DNA of 64,000 nucleotides from Callorhinchus milii (Eukaryota), in assembly GCF_018977255.1 (NCBI RefSeq), contig NW_024704742.1, forward strand, positions 8,992,001-9,056,000. The letters run 5' to 3'. Below the pieces are notes generated by a model. It had not been told where the DNA came from and ran no database searches. It was given only the letters and a program-made list of their open reading frames with translations. How positions within the stretch are numbered: position 1 is the first letter of the stretch; each line of letters opens with the position of its first letter. Both the position numbers and the translations under genes were made by a program. Below are positions 3,238-12,373 of the stretch, piece after piece.

Positions 3238-3450
3238 ATACAAAATACTGCAGATGCTGGAAATCTGAAACAAAAACAGAACTTGCTGGGAGCACTCAGT
3301 AGGTCAGGTAGCATCTATGGAGAAAGGAAAGTGAGTCAGCGTTTCGTGTCCACGACCTGACGAAGGGTCGGGACCCAAAACGTTGACTCACTTTCCTTTC
3401 TCCATAGATGCTGCCTGACCTGCTGAGTGTTCCCAGCGACTTCTGTTTTT
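3238..3450. mobile_element. Penelope-type fold-back element with hammerhead-like core
   Basis: ~75-bp inverted arms (3272-3345 / 3376-3450) around CTGACGA-A-GGGTC-GG-GACCC-AAAA-CGTT. Confidence 0.75.
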
Positions 3451-3536
3451 GAAACGATACGATTGTCTCCCATACAACTAATAGAAATCTGGCTACTTGT
3501 TTTTTTTGGTTTACTGTGAACCTTTAATTTTGACAG

Positions 3537-3640
3537 GGAAGAACATGGTTAACTAAAGCCACGAAAGAGTCTCATGCTCAGCTTTTACTTCAACCCACCA
3601 GAGAACTGTTCCTGCACTCCCCACCCAAGGCTGCCTCCAG
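3537..3640 (+). CDS. WRN: WRN exon (approx. human exon 26), end of RQC
   Basis: tttgacag|GGA...CCAG|gtatgg, 104 nt, phase 0-2. GRTWLTKATKESHAQLLLQPTRELFLHSPPKAAS vs human [25 protein letters not shown]. Confidence 0.93.
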
Positions 3641-3677
3641 GTATGGGCATCCATTCCATTGTTCACATTACAGGCCC

Positions 3678-3850
3678 GTCTCAAGACCCTCCTCTTCGAC
3701 CGTGCCTTCGGCCACTCTCCTACCCCTACTCTCCCTGCCCTCCATCTTCCCTGATTCTAACCCCCAGCTCGGGTCCAAATCCCTGACTGTCCAGCGTCTT
3801 GGGAAGTGCTCCCGACATGAAAGGCGCTGTACAAATGTAATTTTGTATTG
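3678..3850 (+). mobile_element. L2 3' UTR fragment
   Basis: gtctcaagaccctcctcttcgaccgtgccttcgg...tgaaaggcgctgtacaaatg, the same as other L2 tails in the window. Confidence 0.8.
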
Positions 3851-3930
3851 TACTGGATTACTTTAATAATGATGTATTTAAATTTTTTCCTGCAATACTT
3901 GTGCTGATTGTTCTGTGCATTCCTTTATAG

Positions 3931-4003
3931 TTACGTTCAATCTCCAACTTCATCTGTAAGAAGTTCCCCACTTGCTGCCTCAGCCAAGGAACAGGAGTTT
4001 CAG
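3931..4003 (+). CDS. WRN: WRN linker exon (approx. exon 27)
   Basis: tcctttatag|T...CAG|gtccgc, 73 nt, phase 2-0. (S)YVQSPTSSVRSSPLAASAKEQEFQ; phases fit both neighbours. Confidence 0.8.
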
Positions 4004-4503
4004 GTCCGCAGATTTCTTCAAGCCGTTTCCGCAGTGTTATTTCCTCACTTGTGTAATGATTAGTATGACAATTTTAAAGCGTGTGGGGCAAAGTAACCTC
4101 TGATTATTCTAACTATGTTTTCTATAATGAATACAAAGGCCGTTGTTTGTGTTAAATAATGATTCTTGGATTTGATACATCGCCTTTTCACATCAAAACA
4201 TGTCCAAGCGCTTCTTACATCGGGTTACATTAAATTGTGCACACAGACACACCTACACTGGCCCAAGTGTCAGTATCAGACATAAGTACACTGGCCTTAG
4301 TGGGAAGTTACTGCCATTTTCAGCAACAAACATACAAGTCAGTACTCCTAATAGAAATTCTGTGAAGCGCTTTGAGACATTTTTGACCTGATAGGGCGCA
4401 AATACAAATAATAATAATAATAAATAATAATAAATGCAGAGATTATTATAACATTATCATTAACTGTGTTTTTGTTTCAATTTGTTTTTCTTCTATCCTA
4501 AAG

Positions 4504-4583
4504 AGGAAATCATTGTACCAAAGGTTTGCCAGACAGAAGGAAAAAGAGACGGAGAATCTGTTTGTGGAGTTGGACACTAAAAG
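4504..4583 (+). CDS. WRN: WRN linker exon (approx. exon 28)
   Basis: Polypyrimidine tract then taaag|AGG...AAAG|gtaaca, 80 nt, phase 0-2. RKSLYQRFARQKEKETENLFVELDTK(S). Confidence 0.8.
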
Positions 4584-4961
4584 GTAACAAACCCTGGCTT
4601 TGTCCTGACTGTTCCCGAAGGGGCTGAACATCAGTGGGAGTGGTGTTCTGCTCTGTATGCAACTGGCAACTAGGAGTGAGCAGCTGATGATGTTATGGCC
4701 AGCGAAAGACTGAATCAATACAAAGCTGGGAGCTTTCACAGCTTTTAATTCTTTCTCCCCACTCCCCCGCCACCCCCTCCCGAAATAATAAACCAACACA
4801 TTGCAGAATTAGCAGCTGCTGATAAATTCAGTCGTGACTCCTAAGATTTGAACTCGTGAGATAAAGTATCTACACAGCAGCGAGCTCCTTTGGAGGCGGA
4901 TTGCCTCTGAGGAAGTGTGAGAGGGAGGTGCGGAGTCCAGAGTAATATATGCATACACACA

Positions 4962-5565
4962 CAGTGGAAGCCGGTTAAGACGGACACATCCGAGTCGGAC
5001 GTTTTGTATGGTTTAAGAGGCATCCGAGGATAACTGAAATACCATTCCCGCCCAGCAGAAGAACCCCGTGACACAGTATATGTTGTTTCACTTGAAGCAG
5101 TGTTCACTAACCCAAAAGAATCCTGCAAGCTGTGAAAGCTCCCAGCTTTGTATTGATTCAGTCTTTGCGCTGGCCATAACATCATCAGCTGCTCACTCCT
5201 AGTTGCCAAAAGTTGGTTTGACTTCTCCCATTCCCTTCCTTGTTCTTCCCCGTTCCGCTGCCCCCCCCTCACTGATTGACAGCCCAACTCCAGCCGCTTG
5301 TGAGTAGCTGAGTTCCACTGTCAATCAATCATACACTCCTCCCATCTACATCTTGGAGCCCCTCGTGGTTGAATGGACACACAGAAGGCCCCAGTGAGCG
5401 TATTAGCGGTGACCAGTGCGGCATTTTGCCCGGAGTGACCGCATTGTTCAAATCAATTAGCTTTTTTAAAACAGGTAACAATACGAATGATTCGGGCCCG
5501 GTTGTTTTGTTCAATTTACCCAACATCCGGGGTTAACCGGTGTCCGGCCAAAGCGGATTTCACTG
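4962..5565. mobile_element. Non-autonomous Tc1/pogo (Tigger-like) DNA element
   Basis: Imperfect 26-bp TIRs: CAGTGGAAGCCGGTTAAGACGGACAC at left, and a right end whose reverse complement is CAGTGAAATCCGCTTTGGCCGGACAC. The interior is CpG-rich. Confidence 0.55.
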
Positions 5566-6305
5566 TGTATATTAGTCTGGTGCCCCAGAGACTTCCTACT
5601 CACTGAATTGTGATTGGAAAATTTCGAAGTTTCATGGACCGCATTCATTTATATCAGAGCCAAACGCCACTCAGTCAGAGCAGTGTCACAAACTCGCGCA
5701 GATCTATTCAAATCTGCCCTGACTTTGCCACTGTCTGTCACTTGTAGGAATGTGTGTTTGTAAAAGGGATGATCCTAAAATAATCAACGTAACAATTGCT
5801 GTTAAAGAATTTATGACATTCCTCTGTTACTAATGACATAGAGCTGTGAGGAGAGGTTAGCTACTCTCAGACGTTTCTCTCTATAACAGAGAAGACTGAG
5901 GGAGCCTTAGTTTAAGATTATGAAGCATTGAATAAATTAGAGTTGGGTAAATTATTCTGCCCTGCATAATCTAGAACAAGCGTGTCAATTTCACAACAAG
6001 GCCCAAATAGGAAATGCAGGTGTTATGTTTTATTTAGAAGAAAGGAGCTATGCATGTGAACCAAACTACACTATCACCACAGAAAATAAAAATACATTGC
6101 TTTTCAAAAGCAATGGATAAGTGTCATTTACTCCAGGTTATTTGAATTGGTGATTTAGCAATGGGTATATTGAATGAATCTTGTAGGATTGATGGAAAGT
6201 ATGGGCTAGATGGTTCCTGCCGGCATGAAGTTGTTATAGAGACAATTCATCTCCTTGCCTTTTATCCACATAATCTGTAATTAAGGGATAGGGGGCAAGG
6301 GCGGG

Positions 6306-6639
6306 TAATAATAATAATAATAATAATAATCCTTGCATTTGATATAGCGCTTTTCACGTCAGGAGGACGTCCCAAAGCGCTTCACAGAACACACTGTAAA
6401 GTGAATTGACTGTATATTTGTGGGCGAACGCGGCAGCCAATTGCGCACAGCAATGTCCCACAAATAGTCGTAGATTGAAAATGACCAATTTAATTATTGT
6501 TTTGGGTTTTTTGGAGGGATTATTATTAGGCTCTGTGTGGAGTAAGGAAACTTGCCCGAGGTTTCGCCCTCTGCCTGGAATTGAACTCAGATCTCTCACT
6601 TGCAAAGCGAGTGCTCTAACCACTGAACTACAGGACTCC
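6306..6639 (-). mobile_element. tRNA-Ala-like/Deu-tail SINE, subfamily B (full length)
   Basis: Full head to (ATT)n tail. Lacks the central block of subfamily A; tail gggacgtcctcctgacgtgaaaagcgct. Confidence 0.9.
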
Positions 6640-6659
6640 ACTACTTGGACTCGGTACTC

Positions 6660-6750
6660 GGACTTGAGGTAGAGATCAGCCATGATCTTATAGAATGGCT
6701 GAACAGGCTCGAGGGGCTGAATGGCCTCCTCCTGTTCCTATGTTTCCATG
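6660..6750 (+). mobile_element. CR1 3' tail
   Basis: gatcagccatgatctt...gaatggc...aggctcgaggggctgaatggcctcctcctgttcctatg. Confidence 0.8.
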
Positions 6751-6986
6751 TGAATTTGCATTATTATTAGGACACCAATTGATCAGACGTGATGGTAAAT
6801 TCTCTTAATCACATGGCATGTGTTTTTAATAACTGCAATGAATCCTTTGTCAACCAACATGTGATTTTTCACGCCGGTGTGACAGTCATAAAAAGTGTCT
6901 TTTGTGATGAAAAATAAGATACAAAGTAAGATTGTCATACATCTTGTATAATCTGGCATATTAATATTTTTTTCCCTTTTCTTCAG

Positions 6987-7074
6987 TCATTTCTTTCCTT
7001 CACCTGCATCGGGCACACTGGAGAAATCTGTACCTTCGATGGTCGCTGTATCATCCAGGGAATTGGAGCTACAG
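6987..7074 (+). CDS. WRN: WRN linker exon (approx. exon 29)
   Basis: ttttcttcag|T...CAG|gttaga, 88 nt, phase 2-0. (S)HFFPSPASGTLEKSVPSMVAVSSRELELQ; compare human ...[10 protein letters not shown] before HRDC. Confidence 0.88.
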
Positions 7075-7139
7075 GTTAGAATTCTACTTTAATAAAGTCT
7101 TACCTAAGGGTTAGTTTAGCAGTTCCTGCGATATGTAGT

Positions 7140-7480
7140 ATATTGGTTGGATCCAGATGTGCATTAGGTTTGCAGATTGTAGCCTTTGACTGCTGGCTAG
7201 CAGGATAGCAGCTGGGTGGGGGAGGAGGTCAAGGCAGCAGATGGTGGGTTTCATCTGGGTGATGGAGGATGAGAGGAAGGAAGAAAGAGTGGAGGGTAAA
7301 GGAGTGCAGGGTGGGGCCTGTGGTAGAAGCCATGGGAGGATGAGTGAGTGGTGGAGAGGGGGACACACATGGGGCAAGAGGAGGAGGCGGCCAGGCGGAT
7401 GCTATCTATCTTGGAGATAAAGAAATCCAAGACCTCTTCGCACTTGGCATTAGATGTTAAAGGTATATTGATGTGGAATA
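7140..7480 (-). mobile_element. L2 ORF2 internal fragment
   Basis: Minus-strand peptide ...SSITQMKPTICCLDLLP resembles the L2 ORF2 KPTxCxLDPxP motif upstream of the RT domain. Confidence 0.55.
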
Positions 7481-8158
7481 ATTATATGGCACTTTTAATA
7501 AAGCGGTTTATTAAAAATGAAACAACAACTTGCATTTATATATCTCACTGTACCAGCACTTCTCTGTCTCTGTCTGACTTTTTCTCTTTTATAGTCTCTC
7601 ACTTTGCCTTTTTCTCTTGTGTCTTTCTCTAAGAATCTTTAATTTTTTCTCTCTACAATATCTATACAAAAACGTACCTCTGCTATCGGGAGAAAAAATG
7701 TCCTATGTGTGGGCATATGTCCTATGTGTGGGCATTTACAGAGTCATGCACTCACGTGCGAGGTGGCTAGCATCACATAGCTGGGTTCAGAGCATCTCTA
7801 GCAATCTCGAACTTAACATCGCACCTGCACATATGTTTGTCTTGCTAATATCTCACAGCCTTACCTCCAACTTACGGTTAAGAGCCCAATGCAGGTAAAG
7901 CGTCACTTTCAAAACTTGGGACAGCATTGCCTACCTCAGGTTTCAGGACTCATCTTTTGTTAAGAGCTTGGTTTCCCTCCAATATTTAGTTCTTTTGTCT
8001 GAAATATCGCTTGAGTAAAATTTACTATTTGTAAAAGTTTTCTTTTTATGAAGTTTTCTTTTTAATTAATAAACGCTGAGCTTACAGTTACTGTGTACGT
8101 TTTAAGGTTGTCCTTGCACTATGCTGCACTCTTACATTAATTAGTGTTTTGTCCACAG

Positions 8159-8271
8159 GGGAAATTGTATGCCAAATTGTTGACAGCAAGGCAGAAAATT
8201 GCCAGCGAGAAGGATGTTCCTCCAGCCATGTTGGCCACAAACAAGATACTACTAGAGTTTGCCAAGATAAG
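8159..8271 (+). CDS. WRN: WRN exon (approx. exon 30), HRDC N-half
   Basis: gtccacag|GGG...TAAG|gtatta, 113 nt, phase 0-2. [37 protein letters not shown](R) vs human [38 protein letters not shown]. Confidence 0.96.
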
Positions 8272-8392
8272 GTATTAGAAATTGCGGGTAGTTGCCAATC
8301 AATTAATAGATTTTTTTGAAAGAAAAGTTGAACCAAAATCTTTCTTCGTAAAAAGTCAAAGACTATTTTCATTTTGTTTGCTGCGTTTTGCA

Positions 8393-8780
8393 CAGCTCAG
8401 TTAGTTTCTCACTACTGAGTCAAAAGATTGTAGGTTAACCTCTGGACTTGAATTTGTAATCTGGGCTGACACTCCAGTACATTGTTGAAGGGAGCATTGG
8501 TTGCTGGAGATGCTGGTTCAATTCCAGGCAGAGGGCGAAACCTTGGGCAAGTTTCCTTACTCCACACGCCTAATAATAATCCCTCCAAAAAACCCAAAAC
8601 AATAATAAATTGGTCATTTTCAATCTACGACTGTTTGTGGGACATTGCTGTGCGCAATTGGCTGCCGCGTTCGCCCACAAATATACAGTCAATTCACTTT
8701 ACAGTATATTCTGTGAAGCGCTTTGGGACGTCCTCCCGACGTGAAAAGCGCTATATCAAATGCAAGGATTATTATTATTA
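8393..8780 (+). mobile_element. Old DeuSINE head (8393-8512) joined to 5'-truncated subfamily B SINE (8515-8780)
   Basis: gctcagttag...ggctgacactccagtac (old family), then ggttcaattccaggcagagggcgaaac...gggacgtcctcccgacgtgaaaagcgct(ATT)n. Confidence 0.85.
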
Positions 8781-8944
8781 TATCCCCCAAATGGGAAGTT
8801 AATGTCTGTCTATCCTGACATGAGGTTAAAGAACCATTAACACTATTTGAAAAGAGAGGGAAATTTATTTTATTTTCGTTTTGTGGCCTCCAGGTTAATT
8901 GGTTATTCACCTCATGGTTGATTGTGGGACCTTCCCGATGGAAA

Positions 8945-9355
8945 TATATTTGGTCAGCCGAGTGAGTGTCTGTCACAACCGGAAATCCATTGCCTTGCTT
9001 AAAAATATCCACAGCACACAGAGTTTCCCTGTATTCCCTGTCAGTTATGCATAACAATTTCATTTTGTCTGGAATGAAATGCTTTCTCATTCCCTGGAGG
9101 GACACAATCTCGTTATCTAATCCCAGAAAGTTGTACATGCAAGTTGGCAGGAGCCCACCATTGGGGACCCTAGAGTGTGGGTTGGAATACTGCAGGAATT
9201 TAATCAGATAATAACCTTTAGATTGCCATTGTGATCACTGTCTGGCAAGCTATCTCGCTGCTTGCCAGCTTGAACCACCGTCTAATTAGGGTTTTGGCTT
9301 ACAAGGTTAATGGGAGCTAAGTGGGAAGATTCCCTGTAGCTCGGGAACCAGACTA
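8945..9355 (-). repeat. Diverged copy of unclassified ~600-bp repeat family U
   Basis: Colinear with 31833-32325 and 60774-61362 (ccctggaggg...gaaagt...ttgggga.ccc.agagtgtg...ttgccattg...ggttaa...ggagct.agtggga). Confidence 0.65.
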
Positions 9356-9490
9356 CTGAGACCGCTACAGAGGCGCCAATTAATTTTATTGTCAGATGTG
9401 TAATAACATACGTGTCTGCTCACCCCCGGCTGCCAAATTTGCATACACATATAGTCAATACACAAGTTAATAAATACTTCAGCAGCATTT

Positions 9491-9860
9491 GGAGTCCTGT
9501 AGCTTAGGGGTTAGAGCGCTCGCTTCGCAAGCGAGTGAGAGGACCTGAGTTTGATTCCCAGTAGGTCAAAACGTTAGGCAAGTTTCCTTACTCCATACGC
9601 CTCTGTTTACCTAGCAATAAGTAGGAATCTGGTTGTCAGTCGATTAGCAGATCGCTTTTCTGGGGATAATAATCCCTTCAAAAAAAAATTATAATTCAGT
9701 CACTCAACCCATGACTATTTGTGGGACACTGCTGTGCGCAATTGACTGCTGTGTTTCACCCACAAAATATGTAGTCAATTCACTTTGCAGTAAAGTGTAA
9801 AGTGCTTTGAGGTATCTCGAAGATGCGATAAAACCCTATATCAAATGCAAGGATTATTAT
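9491..9860 (+). mobile_element. SINE subfamily A, full length
   Basis: tRNA head with ctcgc-ttcgcaa-gcgag anticodon arm (CGC, Ala-like), central block, Deu/L2 tail. Confidence 0.9.
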
Positions 9861-10394
9861 TTGAATGCAATAAGACGACACTGAAATACCAGTGAGATGT
9901 TGTATTGTCATAAAGCTTTATTCCAGTGGATGGCGCTAAAGCATACAATATGTCTACTTTAGTAGGTATTCAGAATTCACTAACTTGTCTAGGAGTCTGC
10001 AAGATTCAAGTGCCAGATATCAGCTAAATGGGTCTGTCAAAGAGAGAACATTAGCAAGCCTGAGAATATTCATTGACAACTCTGACTCAGGGCCAAACTG
10101 ACTTGTTGGGGCCAGGTCACTTCTCATAAACTTCAGACTTAAATGTAAAATAACTTAAACATTTGAAGAAATGGGACAGATCGGATCTTTATTGACCTTT
10201 TTATTATGTTTTCAACCCACGTTTGTTTCTTCATTCATCAAACTTTGTAAGTGTTGTTGCTGATTCTATATTCAAAAGCCTCTTGTTTTTGGGCTTCACA
10301 AAATGGTGCTCGGTTGTGACCCTGTCAATCCTCCCAATCCTGGACGGGAGTGAGTTCTGAGTTAAATTTGATTTGGTTCTGTAATAATAACAAC

Positions 10395-10737
10395 AGTATT
10401 ACTTGCATTTGATATAGCGCCTTATCACGTCTTCAAGACGTCTCAAAGCACTTCACAGAATATACAGTACAGTGAATTGACTATATATTTTGAGAGCAAA
10501 AGGCAGCAGCCAATTCCACACAACAGTGTCCCGTGACCAATTTATTATTTTTTTTAAGGAATTATTACACCCGGAAAAGTGATCTGCCAATTGACTAACC
10601 ATTGGGTTCCTACTTACTGTTAGGTAAACGGGTGTGTGGAGTAAGGAAAGTTGCCCAATATTTTGCCCTGCCGGGAATTGAACCCAGTCTCTCGCTTGCC
10701 AGGCGAGTTCTCTAACTAACAACTGAGCTACAGGACT
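10395..10737 (-). mobile_element. SINE subfamily A
   Basis: Reverse complement of the 9491 family from head to tail. Confidence 0.9.
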
Positions 10738-11917
10738 GTATGGTTCATGATACAGTAATGAGCTAAATATTGACAGCACATGGCAATCCCGATAGAGTGC
10801 AGTCAACCTCAGATGCCCTTAAAATGAAGAGCGCAAAATGTCTGTCTCCTGGGTTGTTGGTTAGCCAATGATGTGATTACCGCATAAAGTGACGTTATCG
10901 GTGTTTCTTGCACATAGCATGCAAGAGTGGTCTCAGCAGCCACTTGATGATCAGCTCTAAGCATGAGAAGCTGGACAGTCCATGCTGGAAGCTGAAAGTT
11001 TGTTGCATTTCCGTTAACTGCAGGGCGCAATAAATGGGGATCTGCTTTCTTGCTGTTTCCCTGTAGCTTTTATTTCAATGCTAAATGCCACATTAAACCG
11101 AGGCCCATCAGGTGGACTTTAAAGATCCTGTGGGACTATTCACAAAGAAAAAGCAGTTTCTCCCGGGGCCCTGGCTAACAATAACGCAGATTTAAAAATA
11201 AAAAGGGACTTTGTGGCTGTTTGTGGACATTGCTGTGTGCAAACATCGGCTGAGCTACTATAATACCAGAGTCAGGGCAGTGAGAGGCAGATACAATGGC
11301 ACAGACTTGCCAACATCGGGGCACCTCGGGGAAGGAGCAGCCTAAGGTGAGTGTAACAGTCACAGTGAACCTCCAGTCACTAGGAGGAGGCCTTCCCCAA
11401 ATCAGTGTGTCCAGGCAAAGGGAACTCCCAGCGGTTATAAAAGCGGGTTCCCATGGGCAGCAGCGCTGGATCATCCAAGAATTCAGATGAGAGTTTGCGT
11501 CAGTGAGGCTGACCTCACCTATCACCCGTGTGATGGTTGTGTTTGTTTGATCACATGTTCTTGTCCACATTGTAAGATATGATGCCTGACAAGCTGCCTT
11601 TGTGCTCAGCCTTCCAGGGTTTCAAGCATCTCAATTTAAGAGATAAGCCACTTTGTGCACAATGTTACCGTAATTGGGAGCCTCTGTGCAACACAAATGA
11701 TTGGAGTGCAAGACAATGCTGGCTGCAGGCTTCTTCTGAAAGAATTCTATGCTTGTGGAGTTGGACTAACTAACAGCCCTATTGCTGTGCCTTTAACTAC
11801 CGCTACTCCCATTATCTAGGTCTGCTGATAATGTCTCAAACATGGTGTGCATTAACATGTAAATTCTTAGCAGCCTTTTTTTATTTAAAAAAAATCTCTT
11901 TTTTCTTCTGTCCGCAG

Positions 11918-12032
11918 GCCAACCACTGCTGACAACCTGAAAAGAGTGGACGGTGTACCTGAAGCAAAATCTAGTGTGTTGGCTCCTCTATTGGTTATCA
12001 TCAAGGGGTTTTGTGAGGCCAATGAGCTTGAG
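11918..12032 (+). CDS. WRN: WRN exon (approx. exon 31), HRDC C-half
   Basis: tccgcag|G...GAG|gttcgt, 115 nt, phase 2-0. (R)[38 protein letters not shown] vs human [39 protein letters not shown]. Confidence 0.96.
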
Positions 12033-12373
12033 GTTCGTTGTCAAAATAATCCTTTTCTTTCTCTTCCTCTCCTGTGGAAAGGTCAGTGACATGAAATGCA
12101 GGCAGTCATGCCCCACACAAGAATCTCATTAGAGACACAATATTAAAGGGAGCCTTTGCTTAGGTGTGGCTCTGCGTGCTTAACTTAAACACGCTTTAAT
12201 GATCAGCTATGAGATTAAAGTCCCGTTATAAAATTCATGTTCTCAGAGTGCTCCAAATATATTGCCACAGACTCCACCATCCCCTGAGAAAATTTGCAAT
12301 AAATAGCGAAAAGCTCAAATTAGACTTCTGTAAACACTGAACAAAATAGAGGATCACCATGAGCCAAATTATT

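Follow-up and report, generated by a model that had tools for sequence, protein, structure and literature searches.

Two neighbouring exon pairs ahead of the HRDC domain in WRN of Callorhinchus milii: possible copies of one ancestral exon pair

Tandem exon duplication is a known process and, as Letunic and co-workers reportedly set out in 2002, a general route of protein growth, in which adjacent copies within one gene, equal in phase and forming an in-frame unit, later diverge. WRN, the gene of the Werner helicase, offers a human instance, a 27-residue acidic repeat derived from two duplicated exons. Here we describe a further candidate in the same gene, which seems to be new, within a stretch of 64,000 nucleotides from Callorhinchus milii, the elephant shark, which is a chimaera and not a shark (RefSeq assembly GCF_018977255.1, contig NW_024704742.1, positions 8,992,001 to 9,056,000 of the forward strand; hereafter, the window). 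Two neighbouring exon pairs of this gene code for the tether that links the RQC domain to HRDC and for the first helix of HRDC; they are best read, although this is unproven, as two copies of one ancestral exon pair generated by an ancient tandem duplication, a reading to which we give a probability of roughly 55%. Like the described cases, the Callorhinchus arrangement shows adjacent units in one gene, equal phases, an in-frame unit and what would be later divergence; it differs in that the unit would be an exon pair together with its intron, that one copy lies outside the domain, and that the likeness persists chiefly in the coding DNA of a single, slowly evolving lineage. With the human acidic repeat it would share the gene and the duplication, within that gene, of units the size of exons. 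The acidic repeat is near-exact, of recent date and located in the N-terminal half, whereas the linker case would be old, decayed and situated before HRDC.

The human counterpart of this region has been described in some detail. The RQC-HRDC linker comprises residues 1065–1141, and in one account these 77 residues, six times the length of the BLM linker, are called 'probably unstructured' (PMC4212688). Ser1133, in the word S1133PEK, is given in another study as a CDK1 phosphorylation site that steers end resection (PMC5028418).

The gene in the window was identified as WRN through NCBI model P0002 (1404 amino acids), which matched it at 100% with exons from about 3534 to 27215 in tblastn. A search with the reading frame around 8159–8271 listed 40 WRN proteins, the top ones being Callorhinchus milii models at 98–100% identity. 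The four exons under study, grouped as pair A (A1 and A2) and pair B (B1 and B2), are as follows.

3931–4003, plus strand: exon A1, 73 nucleotides, phase 2 to 0; AG/GT borders, present in P0002 and in spliced RNA contigs of runs X4 and X6
4504–4583, plus strand: exon A2, 80 nucleotides, phase 0 to 2; AG/GT borders, present in P0002 and in spliced RNA contigs
6987–7074, plus strand: exon B1, 88 nucleotides, phase 2 to 0; AG/GT borders, present in P0002 and in spliced RNA contigs
8159–8271, plus strand: exon B2, 113 nucleotides, phase 0 to 2, start of the HRDC domain; matched by Pfam HRDC, PDB and P0002

All four exons are bordered by AG and GT and share one reading frame, and P0002 contains precisely A1, A2, B1 and B2 in that order. 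As paralogous exons should, the two pairs lie side by side in one gene, with their exons in the same order, on one strand and all expressed; their intron phases are identical, 2-0 and 0-2 twice over as an earlier sequence-only reading of this DNA had noted, and their lengths are divisible by three (153 nucleotides for A1 plus A2, 201 for B1 plus B2). Their products also follow one plan. A1 and B1 are Ser/Pro-rich, a predicted helix beginning at the end of A1 and the first HRDC helix at the end of B1, and A2 encodes a charged helical motif.

The exons were checked against contigs of four runs from two studies, placed on positions 3400–12200; the runs were only guessed to be RNA, and it is their intron-free contigs that show transcription. 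Record 12 of X4 (1039 nucleotides) and record 16 of X6 (633 nucleotides) carry all four exons at contiguous record coordinates, preceded by one further exon.

3537–3640, plus strand: upstream WRN exon, end of RQC and start of the linker, given for context; borders approximate

This upstream exon was matched by P0002 at 3534–3644 in tblastn and by an RNA contig piece at 3535–3638 (104 nucleotides), with the acceptor cag/GG at 3537 and a donor inferred at 3640/gt. Record 1 of X1 (2356 nucleotides) holds the upstream exon, three of the four exons and the next exon (11916–12033), with a 73-letter hole at the place of A1, which is not among its listed pieces. The borders of the RNA pieces deviate by 2–4 nucleotides from the exon borders where junction letters repeat, and the summed lengths agree. 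Borders, protein model and spliced contigs concur that the segments beginning at 3931 and 4504, like the other two, are genuine exons, as the sequence-only reading had assumed. The UniProt Callorhinchus model P0003 joins A1 straight to B2, an in-frame skip of 168 nucleotides that yields exactly the single-pair form expected before a duplication; this joint was absent among the 15 RNA joints listed, beside which there were 592 further joints. The RNA also differs from the window by T>C in X6 at 7031, which would turn a Val of B1 into Ala, by G>A in X6 at 3581, and by A>T in X1, X2 and X6 at 11966, all of them likely polymorphisms.

The main evidence for a common origin comes from coding DNA, for which the 153 nucleotides of A were compared with the 201 nucleotides of B in Callorhinchus. 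Free local alignment gave scores of 23 (scheme +1/-1/-3/-1; 70 columns, 48 identical), 231 (5/-4/-10/-1; 136 columns, 108 identical, with many gaps) and 31 (2/-3/-5/-2). None of 1573 natural 153-nucleotide windows, taken from both strands of the window, reached these scores (maxima 15, 201 and 29), and codon shuffles kept within exons on either side reached them 0, 0 and 3–4 times per 5000. When codons were aligned as units, the best match was a run of 12 codons in which 27 of 36 nucleotides are identical. It falls precisely on the diagonal set by the junctions, with the final 10 codons of A1 and the first 2 of A2 facing the final 10 of B1 and the first 2 of B2.

3974–4003, plus strand: similarity core, A side, which with 4504–4509 makes up the 12 codons (A codons 15–26); from the codon-unit alignment
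7045–7074, plus strand: similarity core, B side, which with 8159–8164 makes up the 12 codons (B codons 20–31); from the codon-unit alignment

The score of this core was equalled by 1 of 2000 within-exon codon shuffles. Junction-anchored shuffles in blocks of 12, 8, 6 and 4 codons, which keep local composition, reached it in 0, 1, 0 and 2 of 1500 trials, and their best match fell on the junction diagonal in 45, 67, 116 and 233 of 1500 (3–15.5%). The claim that the DNA agrees across the splice junction was thereby borne out more strongly than it had been made. The likeness is also specific to corresponding exons: shuffles attained it in 3 of 3000 trials for A1 against B1 and in 127 for A2 against B2, compared with 2539 for A1 against B2 and 1179 for A2 against B1. 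Furthermore, synonymous resampling with the A protein held fixed reached the three free-alignment scores in 6, 3 and 1 of 3000 trials; therefore, the DNA sequences are more alike than their proteins require.

These results bear on the principal alternative, namely that the pairs have no common origin and that chance likeness is superimposed on a shared build, in which a disordered Ser/Pro stretch leads into a helix with an acidic E.E.Q start and a basic amphipathic body. The splice donor also fixes the last codon of both A1 and B1 as CAG. However, neither the block shuffles, the natural windows nor the synonymous resampling readily produced the observed scores, and many aligned non-identical residues in the codon-unit alignment are one base apart, a pattern more in keeping with descent than with selection for similar chemistry. 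Taking these results together with the points from the protein comparisons given below, some of which favour chance, we regard this alternative as possible but rather unlikely.

The position of the core raises a second alternative, convergence on splicing signals. Splicing enhancers crowd near exon ends, and purine-rich enhancer words in the last 30 nucleotides of A1 and B1, short exons among long introns, might have made the two alike independently. The likeness does peak in those 30 nucleotides and the first 6 of A2 and B2, both of which start RGGAAA, both donors read CAG/gt, and the DNA likeness exceeds the protein expectation. Nevertheless, a collinear match of 36 nucleotides is much longer than enhancer words, and such convergence would leave unexplained why the phases are equal, why the helices share a register and why the hagfish linker is shorter (see below), so that we consider this account improbable.

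Beyond the exons, no likeness was found between the introns and flanks of A and B, 21–179 of 300 dinucleotide shuffles reaching the observed scores. This silence is as expected of an old event, and it implies that the source of the likeness is either old or acts only on the mature message. A recent DNA duplication or a conversion that included the flanks is rejected on the same grounds. Direct repeats within 3400–8500 are pieces of dispersed repeats, and none of them pairs the two units; related pieces occur at 4155–4187 and 6322–6354, and at 4390–4423 and 6287–6320. In each of the four runs, the RNA-contig word depth over the intronic stretches 6340–6930, 8400–8985, 9574–9867 and 10162–10750 lies between tens and hundreds of thousands, which marks these stretches as high-copy dispersed repeats. 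The intron between B1 and B2 contains a perfect 19-nucleotide tandem duplication at 7698–7735.

At the protein level, Smith-Waterman comparison of A with B (BLOSUM62) gave a score of 39 and recovered the alignment across the junction that the sequence-only reading had proposed. Its significance is marginal: 24 of 5000 whole shuffles of A and 54 of 5000 within-exon shuffles attained that score, and separately A1 against B1 was matched by 117 and A2 against B2 by 1306 of 5000. WRN proteins of 40 jawed vertebrates were collected for wider comparison, and counts over 38 species leave out Microtus (P0082) and Esox (P0071), whose models are faulty in this stretch; the species are related, and counts across them are not independent. 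The A and B segments of Rhincodon and Stegostoma scored 43 and 40. A profile comparison over 17 chondrichthyans gave a score of 15.5 (P = 0.013) in the register proposed earlier, with 6 of 300 column shuffles reaching it, and the residues common across this group occupy about six columns around the junction, L-E-L-Q..K..L. When the remainder of each WRN protein served as a natural null, A outscored every other 50-residue window in comparison with B in 7 of 38 species and ranked among the top tenth in 16, and the best alignment spanned the junction in register in 9 of 38, compared with 5.6% of within-exon shuffles.

One further resemblance crosses the pairs. The sequence-only reading had remarked that a human exon of this region looked more like A1 than like its positional match, and stored rodent proteins bear this out: Callorhinchus A1 scored 32, 37 and 34 against the B1-equivalents of three rodents (z 3.0–4.5), whereas B1, the positional match, scored 19 against that of Nannospalax. 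This fits paralogy of A1 and B1, yet it is one more weak protein match. Within this group of proteins, the WRN model of Narcine bancroftii (P0041, 2152 amino acids) carries the linker-plus-HRDC block three times, identically and with a period of 361 residues. Either the block was tandemly duplicated very recently or the assembly or its annotation is at fault; Narcine was omitted from one of the alignments.

The distribution of the protein signal suggests a third alternative, in which short gene-conversion tracts passed between the pairs within chondrichthyans, on top of older homology or of none. It would account for the likeness being best in Callorhinchus, whale shark and zebra shark and for a Callorhinchus DNA likeness above the protein expectation, and Rhincodon and Stegostoma share the word S-[VI]-P-S-Q-Q in both A1 and B1, which other sharks lack in one or the other. 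However, co-variation over the 17 chondrichthyans was negative, with 95 within-species matches compared with 98.5 in permutations (4690 of 5000 reached the count), and this test gave concerted evolution no support. In addition, the likeness crosses the splice junction while introns and flanks are silent, so that two separate tracts would be needed, and copies this unlike each other are poor substrates for efficient conversion. We therefore hold conversion to be improbable.

The arrangement of the linker was then compared across animals. The layout of four parts is present in 38 of 40 jawed-vertebrate models, the remaining two being mis-modelled, and also in the human chain 9hzg_E, gibbon, elephant, two birds and coelacanth. 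Since it is common to the jawed vertebrates examined, any duplication must predate their common ancestor. The human chain 9hzg_E is collinear end to end with the Callorhinchus stretch over all four segments, and its V-Q-S-P-E-K word, whose serine is the CDK1 site S1133 (SPEK; PMC5028418), lies in the segment that B1 matches by position. Callorhinchus B1 differs: the S-P-x-K present at this position in sharks, rays, frogs, coelacanth, rodents and human is missing from it, and an S-P stands a few residues upstream instead.

Outgroup WRN-like proteins were obtained by a search of 1.84 billion representatives with P0003 and by name look-ups, a later search adding the hagfish Myxine. They came from the hagfish Eptatretus, amphioxus, the hemichordate Glandiceps, the damselfly Ischnura, the molluscs Liolophura, Argonauta, Ylistrum and Lymnaea, and the cnidarians Acropora and Actinia. 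All outgroup WRN proteins examined, back to the cnidarians, carry the word ..E.ELQ/G.LY just before and at the HRDC start, which makes the B junction ancient. Among the proteins examined, only those of jawed vertebrates showed the A2 word S-L-x-D-x-F, and no outgroup WRN had it. From the Trp motif at the end of RQC to the HRDC start (LY), six jawed vertebrates with intact models measure 110–120 residues (a seventh, the turtle Pelusios, is mis-modelled in this stretch), and Myxine and Eptatretus measure 75, with a single Ser/Pro-rich unit. The hagfish linker is thus shorter by 35–45 residues, close to one A unit (41–51 residues). In invertebrates this distance ranges from 67 to 109 residues. 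The invertebrate proteins P0095, P0096, P0100, P0101 and P0146 have a conserved I-L-P-x-V ... W word midway along the linker; it occurs in amphioxus, hemichordate, cnidarian and other invertebrate WRN, and was not seen in vertebrate WRN.

The two pairs differ in their relation to the HRDC domain. B2 belongs to Pfam family PF00570 (HRDC) with an E value of 5.1e-7 and 30 bits against a cut-off of 23.8, and it matches the solved structures 2dgz and 2e1e (2e1e_A, E = 4.1e-9) and residues 1156–1189 of human WRN in 9hzg_E. Neither Pfam nor PDB gave a match to A1 or B1 at E<=10. When a profile was built from B1 plus HRDC, the whole Callorhinchus A segment scored 7.6 bits against it, above the 99th percentile of shuffles (3.5), and 6 of 38 species had p<=0.05. 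AlphaFold2 was run on residues 1002–1202 of P0002 (201 residues) with 37 aligned sequences, giving a mean predicted local distance difference test score (pLDDT) of 64, and 84–96 in the HRDC part. Helices were predicted at positions 54–78 and 110–134 of this stretch, each of 25 residues and each with 7 residues before and 18 after its own exon junction; the helix in A is to be taken as a hint only. L64, in A2, is Leu in at least 90% of the 37 sequences, and the linker is consequently not free of constraint. In this respect the Callorhinchus linker, with a conserved Leu-centred motif and a predicted helix, differs from the human linker, which has been called 'probably unstructured' (PMC4212688).

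A number of results weigh against a duplication, and several of them favour chance likeness. The case was picked by eye out of many possible comparisons. The DNA test is confined to one species; half of the 70-column free alignment is out of frame, which is why the codon-unit alignment was added; and over the whole protein alignment identical codons came to 8 of 17, compared with 6.3 expected (P = 0.27), with 17 of 35 third positions agreeing, so that the synonymous excess is local to the core. The protein likeness is weak, with p about 0.005–0.011 in Callorhinchus, and the shared chondrichthyan residues amount to only those six or so columns. Only Callorhinchus, Rhincodon and Stegostoma, 3 of 38 species, fell below p = 0.02. 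A further set of 19 amniotes and amphibians, made up of mammals and birds with one salamander and one caecilian, contained no species with p<=0.05. Profile-profile comparison of 38 A with 38 B segments gave a probability of 0.1% in a different register, and in a profile comparison of 10 frogs 141 of 300 shuffles reached the score; the similarity does not, therefore, grow in deeper profiles. At the protein level, most lineages thus retain no trace of the likeness. The idea that A2 is a shadow copy of the HRDC start recognisable by its profile also gave a negative result: A2 was matched by nothing in Pfam or PDB at E<=10, and an HRDC profile made from WRN proteins for this purpose gave it, taken alone, 0.1 bits, with 4 of 38 species at p<=0.05. 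The predicted helix in A has a pLDDT below 55. Finally, the hagfish distance comes from gene models without exon maps, and the Callorhinchus model P0003 is known to skip exons precisely here; amphioxus (105 residues) and Argonauta (109) have linkers as long as those of jawed vertebrates; and no lamprey WRN model was found in word-index and representative searches.

Set against these points, a codon-level match this strong (about 1 in 1000 or rarer) on a diagonal that nulls select in 3–15% of cases is unlikely to arise by chance, even after tens of possible comparisons. Equal phases would be expected by chance in roughly 5–10% of cases, judging from general phase frequencies, and add a modest factor; a further small factor comes from the register of the helices and another from the length in hagfish. 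On this balance, the duplication of an exon pair remains the reading that we favour. The claim that the linker arose in this way is retained for one part of it: DNA, phases, helices and the hagfish length point to duplication, but invertebrate linkers already measure 67–109 residues, so that at most about 40–50 residues, and not the whole linker, would derive from it. Similarly, the trace was attributed to a slowly evolving shark lineage; the DNA signal does reside in Callorhinchus, while the animal is a chimaera and the event would be older than jawed vertebrates.

We propose that the ancestral pair would have consisted of a Ser/Pro-rich exon, ending in the acidic ..E.ELQ helix start, followed by an exon opening HRDC. 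Between the hagfish split and the last common ancestor of jawed vertebrates, this pair and its intron may have been duplicated in tandem. Copy B, downstream, would have continued to serve as N-terminal extension and first helix of HRDC. Copy A, upstream, would have lost the remaining domain context and decayed into linker while retaining a short helical motif under its own constraint, with A2 as the proposed decayed version of the opening of HRDC. The introns of both copies would meanwhile have diverged completely. The resulting region would tether HRDC to the helicase core and would contain two conserved elements, the A2 helix motif and the Ser-Pro site of B1. It is conceivable, though we think it a long shot, that copy A was kept as a decoy of the first HRDC helix, docking in cis on HRDC or on a partner, with the CDK1-phosphorylated Ser/Pro stretch as its switch; in that case the duplication would have equipped the WRN of jawed vertebrates with an internal regulator of HRDC-mediated recruitment.

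Among the papers listed by full-text search, none on WRN contained 'exon duplication' or 'tandem exon duplication', subscription journals lying outside the coverage. WRN is known as a disease gene and drug target, and the 77 residues of its linker are treated as featureless (PMC4212688). The case suggests that, in a genome that evolves slowly, comparing coding DNA codon by codon can bring to light old internal duplications missed by protein comparison. The biological consequence would be modest unless the A2 motif proves functional. If the duplication is real, the origin of about 40–50 linker residues would be explained and dated to the jawed-vertebrate stem, and attention would be drawn to a conserved, Leu-centred helical motif of the WRN linker that has seemingly gone unstudied.

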